Shown piece after piece: positions 46,164 to 54,308 of a DNA stretch of 64,000 nucleotides. The notes beneath the pieces are model-generated. The model ran no database searches. It had not been told where the DNA came from and saw only the letters and a list, made by a program, of their open reading frames with translations. The position numbers and the translations under genes are program-made. The first letter of the stretch is position 1. Each line of letters begins with the position of its first letter. This DNA comes from an uncultured delta proteobacterium (GTDB lineage Bacteria; Desulfobacterota; Binatia; UBA9968): assembly GCA_963847445.1 (NCBI GenBank), contig CAWJZV010000030.1:1-64000 (forward strand), read 5' to 3'.

Positions 46164-47048
46164 TCACATAACCTGGCGGCGCAGGTAGGCGCTGATGTAA
46201 TCGACAATCGTCACCAAAATGTAAATCGCTATGATTAAGGTCAGCAACTGCTGCTCAAAAAATAAGCTGATGGCGATATGGATGCGCTGGCCTAAACCGC
46301 CGGCGCCAACCAGCCCCAACACCGCGGCCATGCGAATGTTAACTTCCCAGCGATAAAGCGTGTAGGAAATAAACTGCGGCAGCACCTGCGGCACGATGCC
46401 GTAGAATAATATTTGCAACCGATTCGCCCCGGTGGCTTGGAGCGCTTCGATGGGCTGGGAATCGACGTTTTCCAGCACTTCACCGAAGAGTTTGCCAAGC
46501 ACGCCGCCGGTGTGAACGCCGAGGGCGAGGACCCCCGGAAACGGCCCGAGGCCGACGAGAAATACAAAGATCAACGCCCACACCATCTCCGGCACCGTGC
46601 GCAGTATATTGAGCAGGCTCTTCGCCGCGAGATAGGGCACGATGCGCGCCTTGCGCCGCCAACCCTGTTTGGGCTCCATCTCATAGAGCAAACCGGAAAA
46701 TATTAAGTTGCGCGAAGCGAAAAATACCACTGACAGCGCGATGGCCACGGCCAGGAGCGTTCCCATGAAGGAAATCGCGAAGGTCTCAATGCTCCCCTTC
46801 ATCGCCTCGTGCAAGACGTTGGGCGAAAGATCCGGTGGCAGCAATTTTTTTATGTAGATGAGGATCTGTCCGAAGCTGTCGGCGCTGAAGAGCTGCGCCA
46901 GATCGATGCCCGCGCCGCGATAGCTCCAGATAAGAAAGGCGCCAAAGGCCAAACCGATGGCAGCGTTCTTCCATGTCGAGGGCGTGGCAGCACGGGCGCG
47001 GGTCGGCGGAATCGTCTCACAAGCGTTCGGCAGCGGCGACGGGCTCAT
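46164..47048 (-). CDS. phnE: PhnE/PtxC family ABC permease
   Basis: RTVPEMVWA, YRWEVNIR, LGLVGAGGLG. Confidence 0.88.
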   Translation of the reverse strand: MSPSPLPNACETIPPTRARAATPSTWKNAAIGLAFGAFLIWSYRGAGIDLAQLFSADSFGQILIYIKKLLPPDLSPNVLHEAMKGSIETFAISFMGTLLAVAIALSVVFFASRNLIFSGLLYEMEPKQGWRRKARIVPYLAAKSLLNILRTVPEMVWALIFVFLVGLGPFPGVLALGVHTGGVLGKLFGEVLENVDSQPIEALQATGANRLQILFYGIVPQVLPQFISYTLYRWEVNIRMAAVLGLVGAGGLGQRIHIAISLFFEQQLLTLIIAIYILVTIVDYISAYLRRQVM

Positions 47049-47899
47049 AGCATGGCACGCACTTTCGCGCTCAAGTAATCCACTGCGGCAACCATCAGAA
47101 ACAACATGATCAAGATCGTCAGCACTTCATTGAAATTGAACATGCGCATGGAGATTTCGATCTGCTGGCCCAAGCCGCCGGCGCCGACCAAGCCTAAAAT
47201 TGCCGAGGCGCGCACAGCGCACTCCCAGCGATACAGCGTATAGGAAACGAAATTGGGCAGCGCCTGGGGAAACCAGCCATAGAAAAACACCTGCAGCTTA
47301 TTTGCCCCGGTGGCCTGCAACGCTTCCAGAGGCCGGGAATTCACCGACTCGAAGATCTCTGAATAGACTTTGCCGAGCATGCCGCCGTAGGCGACCCCGA
47401 TGGCGAGCACGCCGGGAAACGGCCCCAAGCCGACGGCGCGAACGAACATGAAGGCCCAGACGAATTCCGGTATTGAGCGGAATAGACTCAGCAAGCCGCG
47501 CGCGACCAGATAGATGCCCTGACGTAGACCCCGGCGTAGGGGCGCGCCTTGGAGCTCGGCATCGTTGAGGATGCCGCCGACGACCAGCGTATGGGTGCCC
47601 AACAGTCCGAGTGGAAAACCGATCAGAACCGCGATCGCCGTGCCCCAGATAGAGATTTGAATAGTCTCTAAAGCCGGACGCAGCATCAAGGATAGAAAAT
47701 TCCACGAGACCTCCGGCGGAAACATGCCGGTAAGAAATTTCCCCAACGACGCGCGCCCGCGGTTGGAAAAAAACAGCTCCGGCTCGATCCCCGCCCTTCT
47801 CCAACTGTCGACGAATACTATTACGAAGAGAGCCGCGAAAAGATAGGGAAAGTAGGCTTTAGCTGAGCGAAGGGTAAGCGATGGGCTCGATGGTTTCAC
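47045..47899 (-). CDS. phnE: PhnE/PtxC family ABC permease
   Basis: RSIPEFVWA, YRWECAVRAS, LGLVGAGGLG. Confidence 0.88.
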   Translation of the reverse strand: MKPSSPSLTLRSAKAYFPYLFAALFVIVFVDSWRRAGIEPELFFSNRGRASLGKFLTGMFPPEVSWNFLSLMLRPALETIQISIWGTAIAVLIGFPLGLLGTHTLVVGGILNDAELQGAPLRRGLRQGIYLVARGLLSLFRSIPEFVWAFMFVRAVGLGPFPGVLAIGVAYGGMLGKVYSEIFESVNSRPLEALQATGANKLQVFFYGWFPQALPNFVSYTLYRWECAVRASAILGLVGAGGLGQQIEISMRMFNFNEVLTILIMLFLMVAAVDYLSAKVRAML

Positions 47900-48683
47900 G
47901 CGCGGTCTCGGTCACGGCAGGGTCGCGAAAATTGCCGGAGTACAAATCCTCTAACATATCCTCGCCGATCTTGTCAGGGGACAGATCGAAAGTTACCCGG
48001 CCCTGCTTGATGCCAACGACGCGAGGGAAATAGGCGAGCGCGAGGTCGACACTGTGCAGGCTGACCAGCAAAGTCTTGCGCGTGTTTTGGCTGATATCGA
48101 CCAACAGCCGAACAATCGACGAAGCCAGGGTGGGGTCGACGGATGAAACCGGCTCATCGGCAAGAATAACTTCAGGGTCCTGCACCAAGACACGGGCGAT
48201 CGCGACTCGCTGCTGTTGGCCGCCGGAGAGCTCATCGGTACGCTCAAAAATCTTCTCGGGGATTTCCACTTGGCTGAGCGCGCTGTGGACAAGTTCGACA
48301 TCGGCTGGCTTGCACAAAGACAAGAGCGACCGCAGCGTCGGCCAGCGGCCCAATTGGCCGGCTAGGACGTTATGAATCACGCGCAGGCGCGGCACTAGAT
48401 TATGCTGTTGGTAAACGCTGCCGATGCGGCGCCGCACATGGCGTAAACGCTGGCCATGCAATAAGTCAATATCTTCGCCGTCAATATAAAGTTTTCCCGA
48501 AGTCGGCCGGAGCGTGCAGTTGAGCAGACGAAACAGCGTGGTCTTGCCGGCGCCGCTGGGACCGATCAGGGCGACTTTCTCGCCCTGATCGATCTTTAGA
48601 TCGATGCCGTCGAGCGCCACCTGAAGGCGGCCAAACTCCTTGCGTACGGATTCGAGTTGATATTGCCGGGCCGGGGTGTTCAC
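47859..48683 (-). CDS. phnC: PhnC-like ABC ATP-binding protein
   Basis: GPSGAGKTT, LSGGQQQRVAIAR, LADEPVSSVDP. Confidence 0.9.
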   Translation of the reverse strand: MNTPARQYQLESVRKEFGRLQVALDGIDLKIDQGEKVALIGPSGAGKTTLFRLLNCTLRPTSGKLYIDGEDIDLLHGQRLRHVRRRIGSVYQQHNLVPRLRVIHNVLAGQLGRWPTLRSLLSLCKPADVELVHSALSQVEIPEKIFERTDELSGGQQQRVAIARVLVQDPEVILADEPVSSVDPTLASSIVRLLVDISQNTRKTLLVSLHSVDLALAYFPRVVGIKQGRVTFDLSPDKIGEDMLEDLYSGNFRDPAVTETARETIEPIAYPSLS

Positions 48684-48688
48684 GCGAT

Positions 48689-49546
48689 TTACTTGAACAG
48701 GCCAGCCGCCACCGCCGCCTCTTCGATGCCCTTCCAGTCCGCATCCTTGGCGACGATGTAGCCCTTGGTGCGGTGCAGGTCGAGAAGCTTTTTGTCGTCG
48801 GGTTTGTTGTAGTCGAGTTTGAGAAACGCTTTGGTGATTTTTTCGACCGTAGCCTTGTCGACACCGGCGCGCACGGTCCAGACGTAATCGACATAAGGCG
48901 GCGTGGTCCAGAAAATATTCACCTTGCTGGTATCGACCTTTTTGGTTTCGACGAGCTTATCCCAAACCAAGAAATTCAACGCGCCGGCATCCACCTGGCC
49001 GGATTCGACCCAAGCGGCAGTCGCATCGTGGGCACCGCTAAAGCTGAACTTGGAAAAATCTTTTTCCGGGTTGACGCCGCCTTTGATCAAGAAGTAGCGC
49101 GGCATCAGATGCCCGGAAGTGGAACTGACGCTGCCGAATGCAAAGGTTTTGCCCTTTAAATCTTTCAGACCTTTGATGCCCGTGTCCTTTCGGGTGATAA
49201 AGTGGCTCTTAAACTCGGCGTCCTCTTTGCGCATGATGACACGGTGCGCGCCTTTGGCCTGCTTGGCAGCTTGCACAGACGTCAAGCCGCCGTACCAAAC
49301 CATTTCCAGGCGATTGGCGGCGAGACCTTCAACCGTCGCGGCGTAATCGACCACGGGAGTGAATTTGACTGGAATGCCGATCTCCTTGGTCAAATAATCG
49401 GCAAACGGCGCATAGATGCGCAGCATCTCCTGCGGGTTTTCATCGGGAATCGCCGATATTCGTAATTCCTTCAACCCCTGGGCTTGCGTGCTAGCCCAAC
49501 CCAAAGAGATTGCCAGAGCCGCCGCAAAAAATACTACTCGCTTCAT
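48689..49546 (-). CDS. PhnD-fold binding protein, putative selenate ABC transporter subfamily
   Basis: SAIPDE, WYGGLTSVQA, GSVSSTSGHLMPR, FSGAHDAT, TTPPYVDYVWTVR recalled as typical of the putative selenate subfamily. Confidence 0.75.
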   Translation of the reverse strand: MKRVVFFAAALAISLGWASTQAQGLKELRISAIPDENPQEMLRIYAPFADYLTKEIGIPVKFTPVVDYAATVEGLAANRLEMVWYGGLTSVQAAKQAKGAHRVIMRKEDAEFKSHFITRKDTGIKGLKDLKGKTFAFGSVSSTSGHLMPRYFLIKGGVNPEKDFSKFSFSGAHDATAAWVESGQVDAGALNFLVWDKLVETKKVDTSKVNIFWTTPPYVDYVWTVRAGVDKATVEKITKAFLKLDYNKPDDKKLLDLHRTKGYIVAKDADWKGIEEAAVAAGLFK

Positions 49547-49594
49547 GATCTCCCCCTTATAAATATCGCTCACAATCGTGACCCATGTTAGATA

Positions 49595-49631
49595 ACAGAG
49601 ACAGCCTATAAGTCAAATCGATTTTATCTAT
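49595..49631. promoter_or_regulatory. Paired LysR-type boxes upstream of the transporter
   Basis: ACAG-N7-CTAT (49595..49609) and ATCG-N7-CTAT (49617..49631), 22 bp apart. Confidence 0.55.
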
Positions 49632-49713
49632 CGGTGCCGAGCGAACAAAGGCAGCGGCTACGCTCCCGTGCAATAGCCGGTTGCCCAGGACGTGCAAGCC
49701 GTCCGGCGGCGCG

Positions 49714-50185
49714 CTAACTTTGCGCTTTCAGAAAATCCATCACGGCTTCAGGATGCTCCTCGGCCTTTTTAACAGTCGTCCAGTGCTTGATCACGTCGCC
49801 TTTGGGATCGATCACGACCGTGGAACGGATCGTGCCCTGCACCTCTTTGCCGTACATCATCTTCTTGCCGAAGGCGCCGTATTTTTTCATCACCTCGGTC
49901 TTGGGATCTGAAAGCAATATGAAGGGCAATTTATAACTTCTCGACGAACTTGTTGTGGGACTCGATGCTATCCTTACTGACACCGAGAACGACCGTTCCG
50001 GATTTCTTCAATGCAGCATTCAAATCGCGAAATCCGCAGGCTTCTTTGGTGCAACCGGGCGTGTTGTCCTTTGGATAAAAATAAATCACCACGGTTTTGC
50101 CTTTGTAGTCGTCCAGTGAATGCGTCTTGCCATCGTTGCCTTCCAGGCTAAATGCCGGCGCTTTCTTGCCTTCTAAACTTGCCAT
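49714..50185 (-). CDS. bcp: Peroxiredoxin BCP/PrxQ, Cys form (1-nt frameshift near 49934)
   Basis: [18 protein letters not shown]; Cys45 TGC at 50051..50053. Confidence 0.9.
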
Positions 50186-50252
50186 CGGTTTATTCCTCCT
50201 AGACTTGTCGAACGGATATTCAAAACGCTGATGAATTATTTAGCACCGCCGG

Positions 50253-51053
50253 TCAAACTAACGAAACCCGCTCGGCCTTGTGCGCCATCGCGCGTATCGG
50301 ATCGTAGTCGTGATCATCGGCGGCGGTAAAACGCAACCATCGGCCATCCGCGAGGACCTTGCGGCCAGCGGGATCGAGATGCATCTCGACGAGCAACTGG
50401 CGCAGCGCCTGCCGTTGGGATGCCGCAACCTGGCGCGAGATCACCCAGGGCGGAATCGGACTCGGCCCGATGGTGTCGATCACGCGAATTTCATCCGCTA
50501 GATCATTTCGCTGGCCGCCGAGCCACTCCAACACGGTGCTGTCGATGGCCGCGCCGTCGACGGCTCCCGATAAGATCATTTGCAACGACTTGGTATGGGC
50601 GCCGGCTTCCACCGCCGCGGCAAAAAAATTATCGATTTCACCGAGATCGAAGAGATGCGCGCGCACGACGTTGAAACCGGAATGGGAACGCGGCTCGTTG
50701 TAAGCCCAGGTCGCGCCACGGAGGTCACGGAAAGATCGGCAAGCGCTGTCCCGCCGCACCACCACATCGGAGAAATACACCGGTCTGGATCCGTAGCGCT
50801 CTCCCACCGGTATCGGCACGGCGAGCAACTCCATACTGCTCTCGGCAAGGTCGGCCTTGTGGACGTAGGGTAATCCACAGAGCCAAAGCACTTGAATCTC
50901 GCCGCGATCGAAGAGCGCTTCACGCTCCTGCCAGGGCATGCCGGTCACATACTCCGTCGGGACATTGAGCTTCCCTTGCAGATACCCGGCGATAGCTCGA
51001 CAGAAATCTTCGGTGTTCTCCGCCATGCAGGAAGCGAGCTTTAAAGGATTCAT
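50253..51053 (-). CDS. PhnD/SsuA/transferrin-family binding protein without signal peptide
   Basis: WLCGLPY, YFSDVVV, YNEPRSHSG, GAHTKS, GPSPIPP. Confidence 0.8.
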   Translation of the reverse strand: MNPLKLASCMAENTEDFCRAIAGYLQGKLNVPTEYVTGMPWQEREALFDRGEIQVLWLCGLPYVHKADLAESSMELLAVPIPVGERYGSRPVYFSDVVVRRDSACRSFRDLRGATWAYNEPRSHSGFNVVRAHLFDLGEIDNFFAAAVEAGAHTKSLQMILSGAVDGAAIDSTVLEWLGGQRNDLADEIRVIDTIGPSPIPPWVISRQVAASQRQALRQLLVEMHLDPAGRKVLADGRWLRFTAADDHDYDPIRAMAHKAERVSLV

Positions 51054-51066
51054 CGAGGCGGAACTG

Positions 51067-51348
51067 CTACTCGCTGACCGTCACGCCACGCCAAAAGGCA
51101 ACGTAGTTTTTAATCGAGCCCGCCGCCTCTTTGGGTTCTGGATAAAACCAAGCGGCATCTTGGTTGACCTGGTCGCCCACCTTGACGTGATAGTAACTGG
51201 CCAGCCCTTTCCAGGGACAAGTGCTGTGGGTGTCGCTCGGCGCGAAGCAATCTTTCTTGATCGATTCCGGCGGAAAGTAATGGTTGCCTTCGACGACGAT
51301 GGTTTCGTTTGATTCGGCGACAACCGTATTCTTCCAAACTGCTTTCAT
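51067..51348 (-). CDS. DUF427 domain protein
   Basis: VVEGNHYFPP, STCPWKGLASYY, AAWFYPEPK. Confidence 0.9.
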   Translation of the reverse strand: MKAVWKNTVVAESNETIVVEGNHYFPPESIKKDCFAPSDTHSTCPWKGLASYYHVKVGDQVNQDAAWFYPEPKEAAGSIKNYVAFWRGVTVSE

Positions 51349-51374
51349 GATCAATCCTTTCGATTTACTACGGG

Positions 51375-52736
51375 TCAGTCAGTGACGCAGCGAAACTTGG
51401 CGAACACATAGGGATAGTGCGCTTGATACCAATTGCGAAAACTTGGCCGCAGCAGTGCCGCATCGGTGGCCCAGGACGCGCCTTTGACGACAAAATGTTT
51501 GCCGTCGAAAAAATCCTTGGAATAGTCGGGATAGGTCGTCATGTAGGGCGTGAACCCCGGCAGCGGTGCAAACGGTGTATCGGTCAGCTCCCAACCATTG
51601 CCGACCAGCTCTTGAACTCCCCAGCGGCTAGCACCCGCGGGATGTGAACCGACCGGCTGCGGCGACCATGCGCCAAAGTTGAAGTTGCCATGGCGGGCCG
51701 CAGGCTCGGCATCGCCCCAAGGATACGCCGACTCCCGTTCGTCTGGACCGTAGTAGGCGGCGCGCTGATATTCGGCCTCGGTCGGCAAGCGCTTGCCGCG
51801 CCACGCGGCATAGGCACGCGCTTCAGCCAGACTTACGTAGACCGGCCAACTGGCAACTTGCTCCAGCGGAAATTGGTCGAACATCGCACGGTATGACCAG
51901 GTGTCATCCTGTTTGAACCAACCGGTCGGATGTTGTTTCTTCTCAAGTTCTTTCCAGTGCCAATCATCCTCGCGCCAGTAGCGGCGCGCCGCGTAGCCAC
52001 CGGAAAGAACAAACTCGAGATATTCGCCATTGGTAACCGGCAAAGAGTCCATCGCGAAGCCTGCGACATCAACCGTGATCTCGGAGAACTCATTGTCCCA
52101 GCCAAAAGTGATATCTTCTAATCGCGCCCCCAACCGGGCTCTGCCTGGGGGAATGCGAATACTCTCCGCTCTTGCGGCGCGCCCGAATGCGTAACGGGCA
52201 AGACTCGCGCGGCCGAACTTTATCGCCGGGCGCCATCTGCTGCATCATGTAGAGCAAGGTCTCTTGATGCATGTATTCATGCTCCAAGATCAGCTCAAAG
52301 ACGCGCCCGCCTTGGGCCAACAGATCGGTAGAACGGCAATAGCCGAGCGCATCAGTCGACTCTAAGAGAGAGCGCCGGACTTTGTCACGATACTCGAGGG
52401 TCTCACCAAGGCTGGGCCATTGATCCGGTACTTCCGGGTGCCAGTGGCATTCGCCGGTGTCGACGTCGGGATCGATGCCGCGGCAGAACAGATCGTCAAA
52501 ATAAGCATTGAACAGACGGCCAGTGCAGAATGCCGCCGCAAACCTGGTTCCAGGAAAACGCCGGCAAATGACCGATATAAAAAATAAACGGATGACGCCA
52601 AACGATCGGCTTGGTCAAACGTTTGGCCGGTGCCAACGATGGCGAAAATCTTGTCTGAACGCGCCCAGGCATCGACCAACCTGTCACGCAACTGCTCGGC
52701 AGCGCTCGGACCGCGGCTCTTTAACGGCAGTGCCAT
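51375..52736 (-). CDS. DinB + FGE-sulfatase non-heme iron sulfoxide synthase (EgtB/Egt1/OvoA/SenA superfamily), frameshifted
   Basis: RHPFIFYIGHLPAF, FCRGIDPDVDTGECHWHPEVPDQWP, EHEYMHQETLLYM iron-ligand motif, KRLPTEAEY, RPSFRNWYQ. Confidence 0.85.
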
Positions 52737-52753
52737 AACTCGGTACCTCCATT

Positions 52754-52785
52754 AATTAGCTATATACTAAATAGGAATTAGCTAT
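52754..52785. promoter_or_regulatory. LysR-type box upstream of sulfoxide synthase
   Basis: ATAG-N7-CTAT at 52771..52785; AATTAGCTAT repeated 22 bp apart. Confidence 0.6.
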
Positions 52786-52829
52786 GTAAGACCGCGGAGG
52801 TAAAATTTCGATGAAAAAAATGCCGCAGA

Positions 52830-53742
52830 TTATCGGTGTTTGAGAAAATCGCGGAAAGCTTGGGCGATGGGATGGAACGGCCGGCGGCTATGAAAGACTT
52901 GGTAGAAGTTGCGTTCGAGTTTCAGGCCACGGATCGGCACTTCGACGATGCTGCCTTGATCGAGCTCATGGCGAATCGAGATGCGCGATAAAATCGAAAA
53001 GCCGTAACCGGCCATCAGGGCTCCCTTGACGGCTTCCGTGCTGCCAAGCTCCATGGTGATGTTCAAAAGGTCGTGGGCGGGCGGTTTGCGTTTGACCGAG
53101 CAATTGCCGGATGGAATCCAACGTCCCCGAGCCATGTTCGCGTGAAATGAATCGTTCACTGCGCAGGTCCGCGACTTCGATCGCTTTACAGCGGCTCCAT
53201 GGATGGCCTTTGGGCACGGCGACGACCATTTCGTCATCCCAAATCTTTTCGAAACTAAGTCTAGGATCGTCGCCTTTGAAGCCGACGAAGCCGATCTCGA
53301 CCTTGCCATCCAAGAGATCGGCGACCACACCGGCGGAATCGCCAATGCGCAGGATCGGTTTTACCTGGGGAAACTTTTTGATGAACTCGCCGAGCTTTTG
53401 CGGCAGGAGATATTCGCCGGGAATGCTGCTGCCGCCGACCCAAAGCTCGCCGCTGAGAGTGCCGTGAAATTGCTCCACCGCGGCGACGGTTTCGCGTTTG
53501 AAGGCGAGTAGATTCTTCGCCCGTTCGGCGAGCATGAGGCCCAACGGCGTCAGACTGATCTTGCCCGGCATGCGGTAGAGCAGTTTGCCACCCACCGCTT
53601 CTTCGAGCTCTTGGACATGAGCGCTGATGGTGGGCTGGCGCAGCGAGAGCAGCTCGGCAGCCTGAGAAAAACTCTTATGTTCAGCGACCCAGTAGAAAAT
53701 TTCTAATTTGTGGAGATCGAGGTCGGCTTTGATTTTCGCCAT
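52830..53742 (-). CDS. LysR family regulator (CysL/CmpR-like, resembles selenium-metabolism-associated LysR), frameshift near 53090
   Basis: HTH SFSQAAELLSLRQPTISAHVQELE; GSSIPGEYLLP, REHGSGT, ELGSTEAVK. Confidence 0.85.
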
Positions 53743-53762: not shown

Positions 53763-53808
53763 GCTGAGGGAGCGCGCCATTACAAACAATCGGCCGCGCT
53801 CCCTCAGC
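53763..53808. other. 14-bp perfect hairpin between Sec-peroxiredoxin and LysR
   Basis: GCTGAGGGAGCGCG...CGCGCTCCCTCAGC. Confidence 0.7.
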
Positions 53809-53822
53809 TAGGGTTTGACTAC

Positions 53823-54290
53823 TTACTTACCGAGGAATTCCAACACTTCCGCCGGATGGGCGCCGGCGTCAGTGACAGGAATCCAATGCTTCTTAATCGT
53901 GCCATCGGGGCCGATCAATGCGGTCGAGCGGATCGTCCCTTCCGAGACTTCGCCCGCGGCATTTTTGCGCGGTCCCCAGGCGCCATAGGCTTTCATGGTT
54001 TCTTTCTGCTGGTCGGCTAAGAGCACGAACGGCAGGTTGAACTTGTTGATGAACTGATTGTGAGAGTCGATGCCATCCGGGCTGACACCTACAACCACGG
54101 TATTGGCTTTCGTCACGGTATCGATAGCGTCGCGGAACCCGCACGCTTCTTTGGTTCAGCCAGGTGTGTCGTCTTTCGGATAAAACCACAGAATGACGTT
54201 TTTGCCGGCGTATTCCGCCAGCGAATGTTGCTTGCCGTCGCTCCCCGCCAAAGTGAACGCCGGCGCTTTTTGCCCTTCAAGTCCTGCCAT
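53823..54290 (-). CDS. Selenocysteine-containing peroxiredoxin BCP/PrxQ (155 aa, Sec45)
   Basis: Single frame from ATG 54290 with GGAGG RBS: WFYPKDDTPG-TGA(54158..54156)-TKEACGF; TGA aligns with Cys45 of the paralog. Confidence 0.88.
54127..54146 (-). promoter_or_regulatory. Bacterial SECIS-like stem-loop
   Basis: GCGUGCGG-GUU-CCGC(G)ACGC starting 10 nt after UGA, G in apical loop. Confidence 0.75.
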
Positions 54291-54308
54291 GAAGCACCTC
54301 CGTATTAA

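Follow-up and report, generated by a model that had tools for sequence, protein, structure and literature searches.

A putative selenocysteine-containing BCP/PrxQ peroxiredoxin gene in an uncultured Binatia bacterium whose tRNA-Sec gene is found in two pieces

The locus and its in-frame TGA

The window, that is, the whole stretch of 64,000 nucleotides that was analyzed, carries on its minus strand a peroxiredoxin gene with one TGA codon inside its reading frame. The elements of this gene, in window positions, are the following:

53823..54290 (-): predicted Sec-BCP/PrxQ peroxiredoxin gene, 155 codons, Sec45, from ATG 54290 to TAA 53823
54297..54301 (-): GGAGG, Shine-Dalgarno-like in sequence, 6 nt before the ATG
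54156..54158 (-): TGA codon 45, at the peroxidatic position of P38-x3-T42-x2-U45; TGA in 30/30 loci read, aligned with the peroxidatic Cys of solved BCPs
54127..54146 (-): SECIS-like hairpin (predicted fold), +10 to +29 after the TGA, with a G-first apical loop; identical in 25/25 genus loci and frozen at silent sites
54141..54143 (-): codon of Cys50, candidate resolving Cys in helix alpha2, inside the hairpin stem; the only Cys of the protein, kept in 24/24 orthologues
53928..53930 (-): codon of Arg121, invariant in 43/43 aligned Sec-BCPs

As proposed in the preliminary description of this DNA, ATG 54290 and TAA 53823 delimit a single minus-strand frame of 468 nt, and the TGA at codon 45 is its sole internal stop, in the context YPKDDTPG*TKEAC. 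That description also took the product for a selenoprotein with Sec at the peroxidatic site, a claim supported by the conservation of the TGA and by the alignment with solved BCPs. In a search of 60 related genomes at E 1e-30, matches were found in 24/30 genomes of the genus and in 18/19 of a second family, and in none of the 11 genomes of the remaining genera. The 30 best loci (25 of the genus, own locus included, and five of the second family) were read codon by codon, and the TGA at codon 45 was retained in every one (25/25 and 5/5), as had been anticipated for homologues; in the second family, one TGA is listed in all 18 matches. The raw pN/pS of the gene, calculated against 22 relatives' loci, was 0.03-0.22 across its full length.

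These data bear on the simplest alternative, in which sequencing error or nonsense mutation has turned a Cys codon into TGA, and the gene is a pseudogene beside an intact paralogue. The assembly is indeed error-prone, and many nearby genes are frameshifted. However, the same TGA was present in 29/29 other loci from independent assemblies, which agrees with the earlier opinion that it is not an error of the indel type seen elsewhere in the window; moreover, purifying selection is strong downstream of the TGA, and the hairpin that follows it is frozen at silent sites. Since the TGA is found in all the loci and the raw pN/pS is low over the whole length, an error or a dead gene can be discarded, and we regard the probability of this alternative as practically negligible. 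The sequence comparison argues strongly that purifying selection acts on the whole Sec-BCP protein, and the apparent stop almost certainly encodes selenocysteine in a gene that is intact. The promoter scan of the window found no promoter on the strand of the gene. It should be noted that standard gene callers split the Sec-BCP gene at the TGA, and the value of the observation is mainly for annotation.

The same strand carries further elements downstream of the gene:

53763..53808 (-): strong GC-rich hairpin between the Sec-BCP gene and lysR, predicted terminator or repeat; z = -4.3, 0/200 shuffles
52830..53742 (-): selenium-metabolism-associated LysR regulator, frameshifted here; NF040786 191 bits on a 258-aa piece
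51375..52736 (-): EgtB/OvoA/SenA-like sulfoxide synthase, frameshifted here; below all three cut-offs, full-length relatives too
49714..50185 (-): BCP paralogue with Cys (TGC), one frameshift; TGA in 6/17 genus copies read
46164..49573 (-): putative selenate ABC transporter (binding protein, ATPase, two permeases); TIGR04553 335 bits (cut-off 250), PhnC- and PhnE-type partners

The order downstream of the Sec-BCP gene is hairpin, LysR, synthase, a small conserved gene, a PhnD-like protein, the BCP paralogue and the transporter. The Sec-BCP gene heads a selenium-linked cluster, the other members of which lie at positions 46164-53742 of the window. The terminator scan did not call the hairpin at 53763..53808. 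The LysR gene comes next after Sec-BCP in 9/9 loci listed, and NF040786 scores 262 and 268 bits in two full-length relatives (cut-off 250); of these nine loci, only three have the transporter after the paralogue. A selenoneine pathway was considered for the sulfoxide synthase and rejected, as the protein scores below the SenA cut-off; senB was above the cut-off in 4/4 relatives and was not found in this assembly.

The paralogue (50185-49714), itself split by a frameshift, has TGC at the site equivalent to the TGA, just as the preliminary description stated. Among the 17 genus copies, 11 have Cys and six have TGA. The six Sec alleles group in a single clade (97/94), a placement that conflicts with the main-copy tree (AU p 5e-7; six genomes tested, with the group chosen after seeing the trees). 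This topology would fit one Cys/Sec switch in the paralogue followed by allele exchange. The Cys paralogue is probably a selenium-independent back-up. The Sec and Cys forms of the same enzyme, 4 kb apart in a selenium-uptake cluster, are a possible test pair; our literature search found no biochemical study of a Sec-BCP.

The predicted protein and the SECIS-like hairpin

The assignment to the BCP/PrxQ class, made at first from the sequence alone, was borne out by the closest sequence and structure matches. The Pfam domain AhpC-TSA (PF00578) spans the TGA, covering residues 6-134 with 126 bits (cut-off 26). Among NCBIfam models, PrxQ and bcp score best, each below its cut-off (NF053650, 155 bits against 260; PRK09437, 116 bits against 140), a shortfall that limits the naming and not the subfamily, both models being lineage-specific. 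In addition, the best sequence matches in the PDB are named BCP or are BCP-sized peroxiredoxins. The AlphaFold model, built from a 43-row alignment with Sec modelled as Cys, reached a pLDDT of 96, and the top ranks of its Foldseek search are BCP/PrxQ entries with TM values of 0.85-0.94. Residues 45 and 50 are held in the same modelled helix (43-54), and Arg121 is what we take to be the catalytic arginine of peroxiredoxins.

Following established bacterial Sec decoding, SelB with Sec-tRNA would bind the hairpin loop some 18 nt past the UGA and insert Sec45. As in the chemistry of PrxQ, Thr42 and Arg121 would then hold the selenolate of Sec45 while it reduces H2O2 or alkyl hydroperoxides; the selenenic acid would react with Cys50 of the same helix, upon local unfolding, to give an Se-S bond, and a thioredoxin-type reductant would recycle this bond. 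Cys50 is, by analogy, a candidate for the resolving residue. It may be dispensable for Sec-BCPs, because few TGA-bearing matches carry a Cys at +5 (32/120 of those listed in the collection scan). Furthermore, 29 of the 75 full-length TGA-bearing matches listed have no Cys at all after the Sec. As a side observation, Sec-BCPs mostly are without the alpha2 resolving Cys (the same 32/120 listed), versus about 60% having it as reported for PrxQ overall (PMC4749874).

A stem-loop had been described as starting 10 nt past the TGA, with GUU in its loop, and it folds as drawn, the loop lying at +18 to +20. The bacterial SECIS consensus is a hairpin directly 3' of the UGA with a G in the apical loop. 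When the RNA folding was checked, the predicted shape stood and an unusual stability did not: the folding-energy z was -0.64 over 59 nt, -0.54 over 49 nt, -1.47 over 99 nt, and -2.12 over a 31-nt piece trimmed to the hairpin. By itself, such an energy says little in favor of a SECIS, and as proof of one it was rejected, not being significant. The evolutionary evidence is of another kind. The 20-nt hairpin is invariant in the genus, silent sites included, while the rest of the gene and the Cys paralogue vary. Codons +4 to +9 are each represented by one codon in 24/24 orthologues, whereas of the 26 further degenerate codons whose residue does not vary, none is so restricted (Fisher p 6e-6, a value overstated by the non-independence of kin). 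The 11 Cys copies of the paralogue serve as an internal control and vary freely over the hairpin-equivalent codons; for example, the Gly codon at +6 is GGG in 30/30 Sec copies versus 3/11 Cys copies. No compensatory changes were found within the genus, because the hairpin does not vary there. Taken as a pattern of substitutions, these results support a hairpin under nucleotide-level constraint, which makes it a candidate SECIS.

Decoding machinery and the divided tRNA-Sec gene

With regard to decoding, the preliminary description had staked its reading on a genome with tRNA-Sec and SelAB. The protein part stood, selA and selB being present together with selD; for the RNA part, the assembly has pieces of tRNA-Sec and no intact copy, a gap being likelier than a true loss. 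At G000:C14:191.5-195.8 kb (G000 being this genome) lies an operon of selA, selB and selD, the last with a TGA of its own; selA and selD are above their cut-offs, and selB was found in frameshifted pieces. The single-base insertions present here, one in selA, four in selB and one in selD, are read as long-read errors, and the frames are open in G014, G021 and G015. The raw pN/pS of the three genes was 0.10, 0.11 and 0.16 here against G021, similar to the 0.11, 0.10 and 0.11 of G014, and in amino-acid change they do not exceed their counterparts in relatives. In G003, an insertion with a transposase-like frame lies between selA and selB.

Three family searches plus 20 hand-picked candidates yielded at least 37 genes with a TGA at a catalytic-Cys site, a lower bound that leaves formate dehydrogenases outside the search and includes three near-identical pairs, possibly assembly duplicates. 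The TGA occupies such a site in 12/27 AhpC-TSA matches, 8/19 CMD matches, five GrdB genes and SelD, and 11 of the 20 hand-picked candidates fall into known selenoprotein families. Seven of the 20 were dropped, namely three to which no family could be assigned, carB, two gene junctions, and one whose TGA precedes a UbiD domain. Counting the cyclase described below and a PrdB-like gene (C34:308521) would bring the total to 39. Six TGA-bearing redox genes (OsmC, three CMD, two Prx-like) were observed within 6 kb at G000:C16:39000-45000, and many TGA-bearing AhpC-TSA genes occur in other members of the genus too. For one gene of this genome, the nearest named protein, at 95% identity, bears the label Candidatus Binatia. 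The published selenoproteome records given in PMC13188914 are 57 and 63. The wider point is the large selenoproteome of the genus (at least 37 sites).

The cyclase is a class III adenylate/guanylate cyclase with an N-terminal CxxC...CxxU module, located at G000:C17:178219-178731(-) with the TGA at 178545. This TGA was present in 11/11 genomes with a match, and at the CxxU site in 9/9 read; exact matches in metagenomes number at least 120 and share a conserved hairpin, and full-length homologues are accompanied by many truncated database entries. No cyclase is among the 119 selenoprotein families of Table 1 in PMC13188914, and the literature search found no paper on a TGA- or Sec-containing cyclase. 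This cyclase is more novel than the Sec-BCP.

A different decoding of the TGA was also weighed, namely, that UGA is decoded as Cys or Trp by a suppressor tRNA or under an altered code. Two facts speak for it: some deltaproteobacteria have UCA tRNAs that insert Cys, and no tRNA-Sec is assembled here. Nevertheless, the UCA tRNA of 12/12 relatives' loci examined is the 95-nt tRNA-Sec (RF01852, 73-77 bits), selABD are conserved, and the in-frame TGAs coincide with catalytic Cys positions in established selenoprotein families. TGA also terminates ordinary genes, as at the two gene junctions among the 20 candidates. We consider readthrough as Cys or Trp very improbable.

No intact tRNA-Sec was detected in the assembly by an Rfam search (150 of 964 candidates from the own genome scored), a stem-loop scan, BLAST with a relative's tRNA or a pattern search allowing three mismatches. 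An ARAGORN 'tRNA-SeC' at G000:C2:139122-139203 was rejected, as it is without a proper D or T arm and without an RF01852 match. The 95-nt gene is intact in 16/30 genus relatives. In this assembly we found two pieces of it: a 5' piece (nt 1-23, two substitutions) in the middle of a contig, at G000:C4:239464-239486, and a 3' piece (nt 68-95) at C12:77602-77575, beside the tyrosine integrase of a lower-GC element. The flank of each piece matches that in the close relative G003. The DNA joined to the 5' piece is genuine: a 233-nt short-read contig of run X1 crosses this junction with one difference (one contig, from one of the four runs compared, among the matches listed). In the search of sequencing runs for the selC junction, no run contained half of it, the best value being 0.47 and those of RNA runs 0.05-0.06. 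The element behind the 3' piece (G000:C12:77650-98679) is integrative and carries the integrase; by eye, it also carries genes for a lytic transglycosylase, a primase, a helicase and SSB.

The DNA between the two pieces is missing, C4 being foreign from about 250 kb and C12 ending inside the island. The C4 tail, from about 250 kb to its end, duplicates rpsB, tsf, pyrH, frr and gltX, with about 50% identity to the resident genes (of which rpsB, tsf, pyrH and frr are on C15). By gene order the tail is presumably alphaproteobacterial, and it is a chimeric join. Related sequences present comparable arrangements. In G025 a decayed 5' piece of tRNA-Sec precedes the intact gene by 2.5 kb, and in G011 a displaced 5' piece is followed by other DNA. 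Viral contig L371 carries an integrase and then exactly the first 42 nt of tRNA-Sec, which would be the attachment site expected of an element supplying a new 5' half of selC.

The divided gene admits another interpretation, in which this is a true Sec gene no longer decoded in this strain: insertions would have destroyed the only tRNA-Sec, UGA 45 would end translation and the Cys paralogue would substitute. The two tRNA-Sec pieces are all that was found, the 5' junction is confirmed independently by the short-read contig, and the paralogue does have Cys in this strain. But the DNA between the pieces is precisely what is missing from the assembly, the genome is 91.8% complete, and G025 shows a decayed 5' piece and an intact gene side by side. 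Likewise, selA, selB, selD and Sec-BCP show no excess of amino-acid change, and TGA and hairpin are kept in dozens of Sec genes. Phage contig L371, for its part, fits the known island type that replaces the 5' part of the tRNA gene (PMC4383910). We therefore judge a loss of decoding unlikely. The same low odds apply to the idea of a strain caught losing selenocysteine, with selC hit by mobile elements from both ends and Sec-BCP and some three dozen intact Sec genes just silenced; if true, Cys paralogues such as the neighboring BCP would cover for the silenced genes, and the strain would be a natural experiment on the decay or Cys conversion of a very large selenoproteome.

The split tRNA-Sec probably reflects an assembly gap at an integration hotspot. 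An intact tRNA-Sec very likely lies within that gap, and the most likely place of a functional copy is the unassembled middle of the islands inserted at selC. In our reading, for which we estimate a probability of about 0.89, the locus holds an intact gene for a BCP/PrxQ-class selenoprotein, decoded via a tRNA-Sec that is most likely in the assembly gap. The genus's single tRNA-Sec gene would then depend on repair by inserted elements.

Comparison with known families and systems

Islands in tRNA genes with a displaced 5' fragment of the tRNA account for 159/3919 in Islander (PMC4383910). In such islands the 5' tRNA piece lies upstream and the 3' piece beside a tyrosine integrase, as at the selC site here; the differences are that the regenerated tRNA between the pieces is absent from this assembly and that only 23 nt of the 5' piece are left.

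PrxU of Eubacterium acidaminophilum has Sec at the peroxidatic position, as proposed here. However, it belongs to another subfamily: the protein described here reaches 41 bits against the NF040737 cut-off of 270, and the PrxU model has a length of 233 versus 155 aa. The Cys-type BCP/PrxQ proteins of known structure (3drn, 5enu, 5iiz) are alike in fold (TM 0.85-0.91), in the YPKD.TPG[C/U]T.E motif and in the conserved Arg, and differ in having a peroxidatic Cys where Sec is predicted here. No solved Sec form of BCP/PrxQ was seen among the structure matches.

The gene is a further member of a long-catalogued and common Sec-peroxiredoxin family (TxxU, COG1225); COG1225 is, as we understand it, the Bcp group. 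The exact-pattern scan of species genomes gave at least 120 matches, and since the pattern demanded TGA, it gives no Sec-to-Cys ratio. Of the wider TGA matches listed, 117/120 stay open for at least 90 codons, and the 80 titled ones among those listed bear the labels Acidobacteriota, Actinomycetota, Alphaproteobacteria, Binatia, Geobacteraceae and Bacillota. The motif is present in many phyla, and Sec-BCP is common in uncultured soil and sediment bacteria. Sec-peroxiredoxins (TxxU, PF00578/COG1225) have been catalogued since 2005, with 43 sequences in the Sargasso Sea set (PMC1088965); 253 were reported in the GOS set (PMC2398784), and 12 in genomes, with five Cys-to-Sec events (PMC1794560). 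The Sec-Prx family also appears in Table 1 of PMC13188914, as experimentally verified via PrxU. In these surveys the COG1225 family is named 'Peroxiredoxin', and the Zhang/Gladyshev supplements may show Sec-BCP alignments explicitly. The AhpC-TSA domain, the PxxxTxxU motif, and the in-frame UGA with a hairpin in the coding region are common to that family and to the gene described here. This copy does not differ in kind; its own features are the Cys five residues after the Sec and its position in a selenium-linked cluster together with a paralogue that alternates between Cys and Sec.
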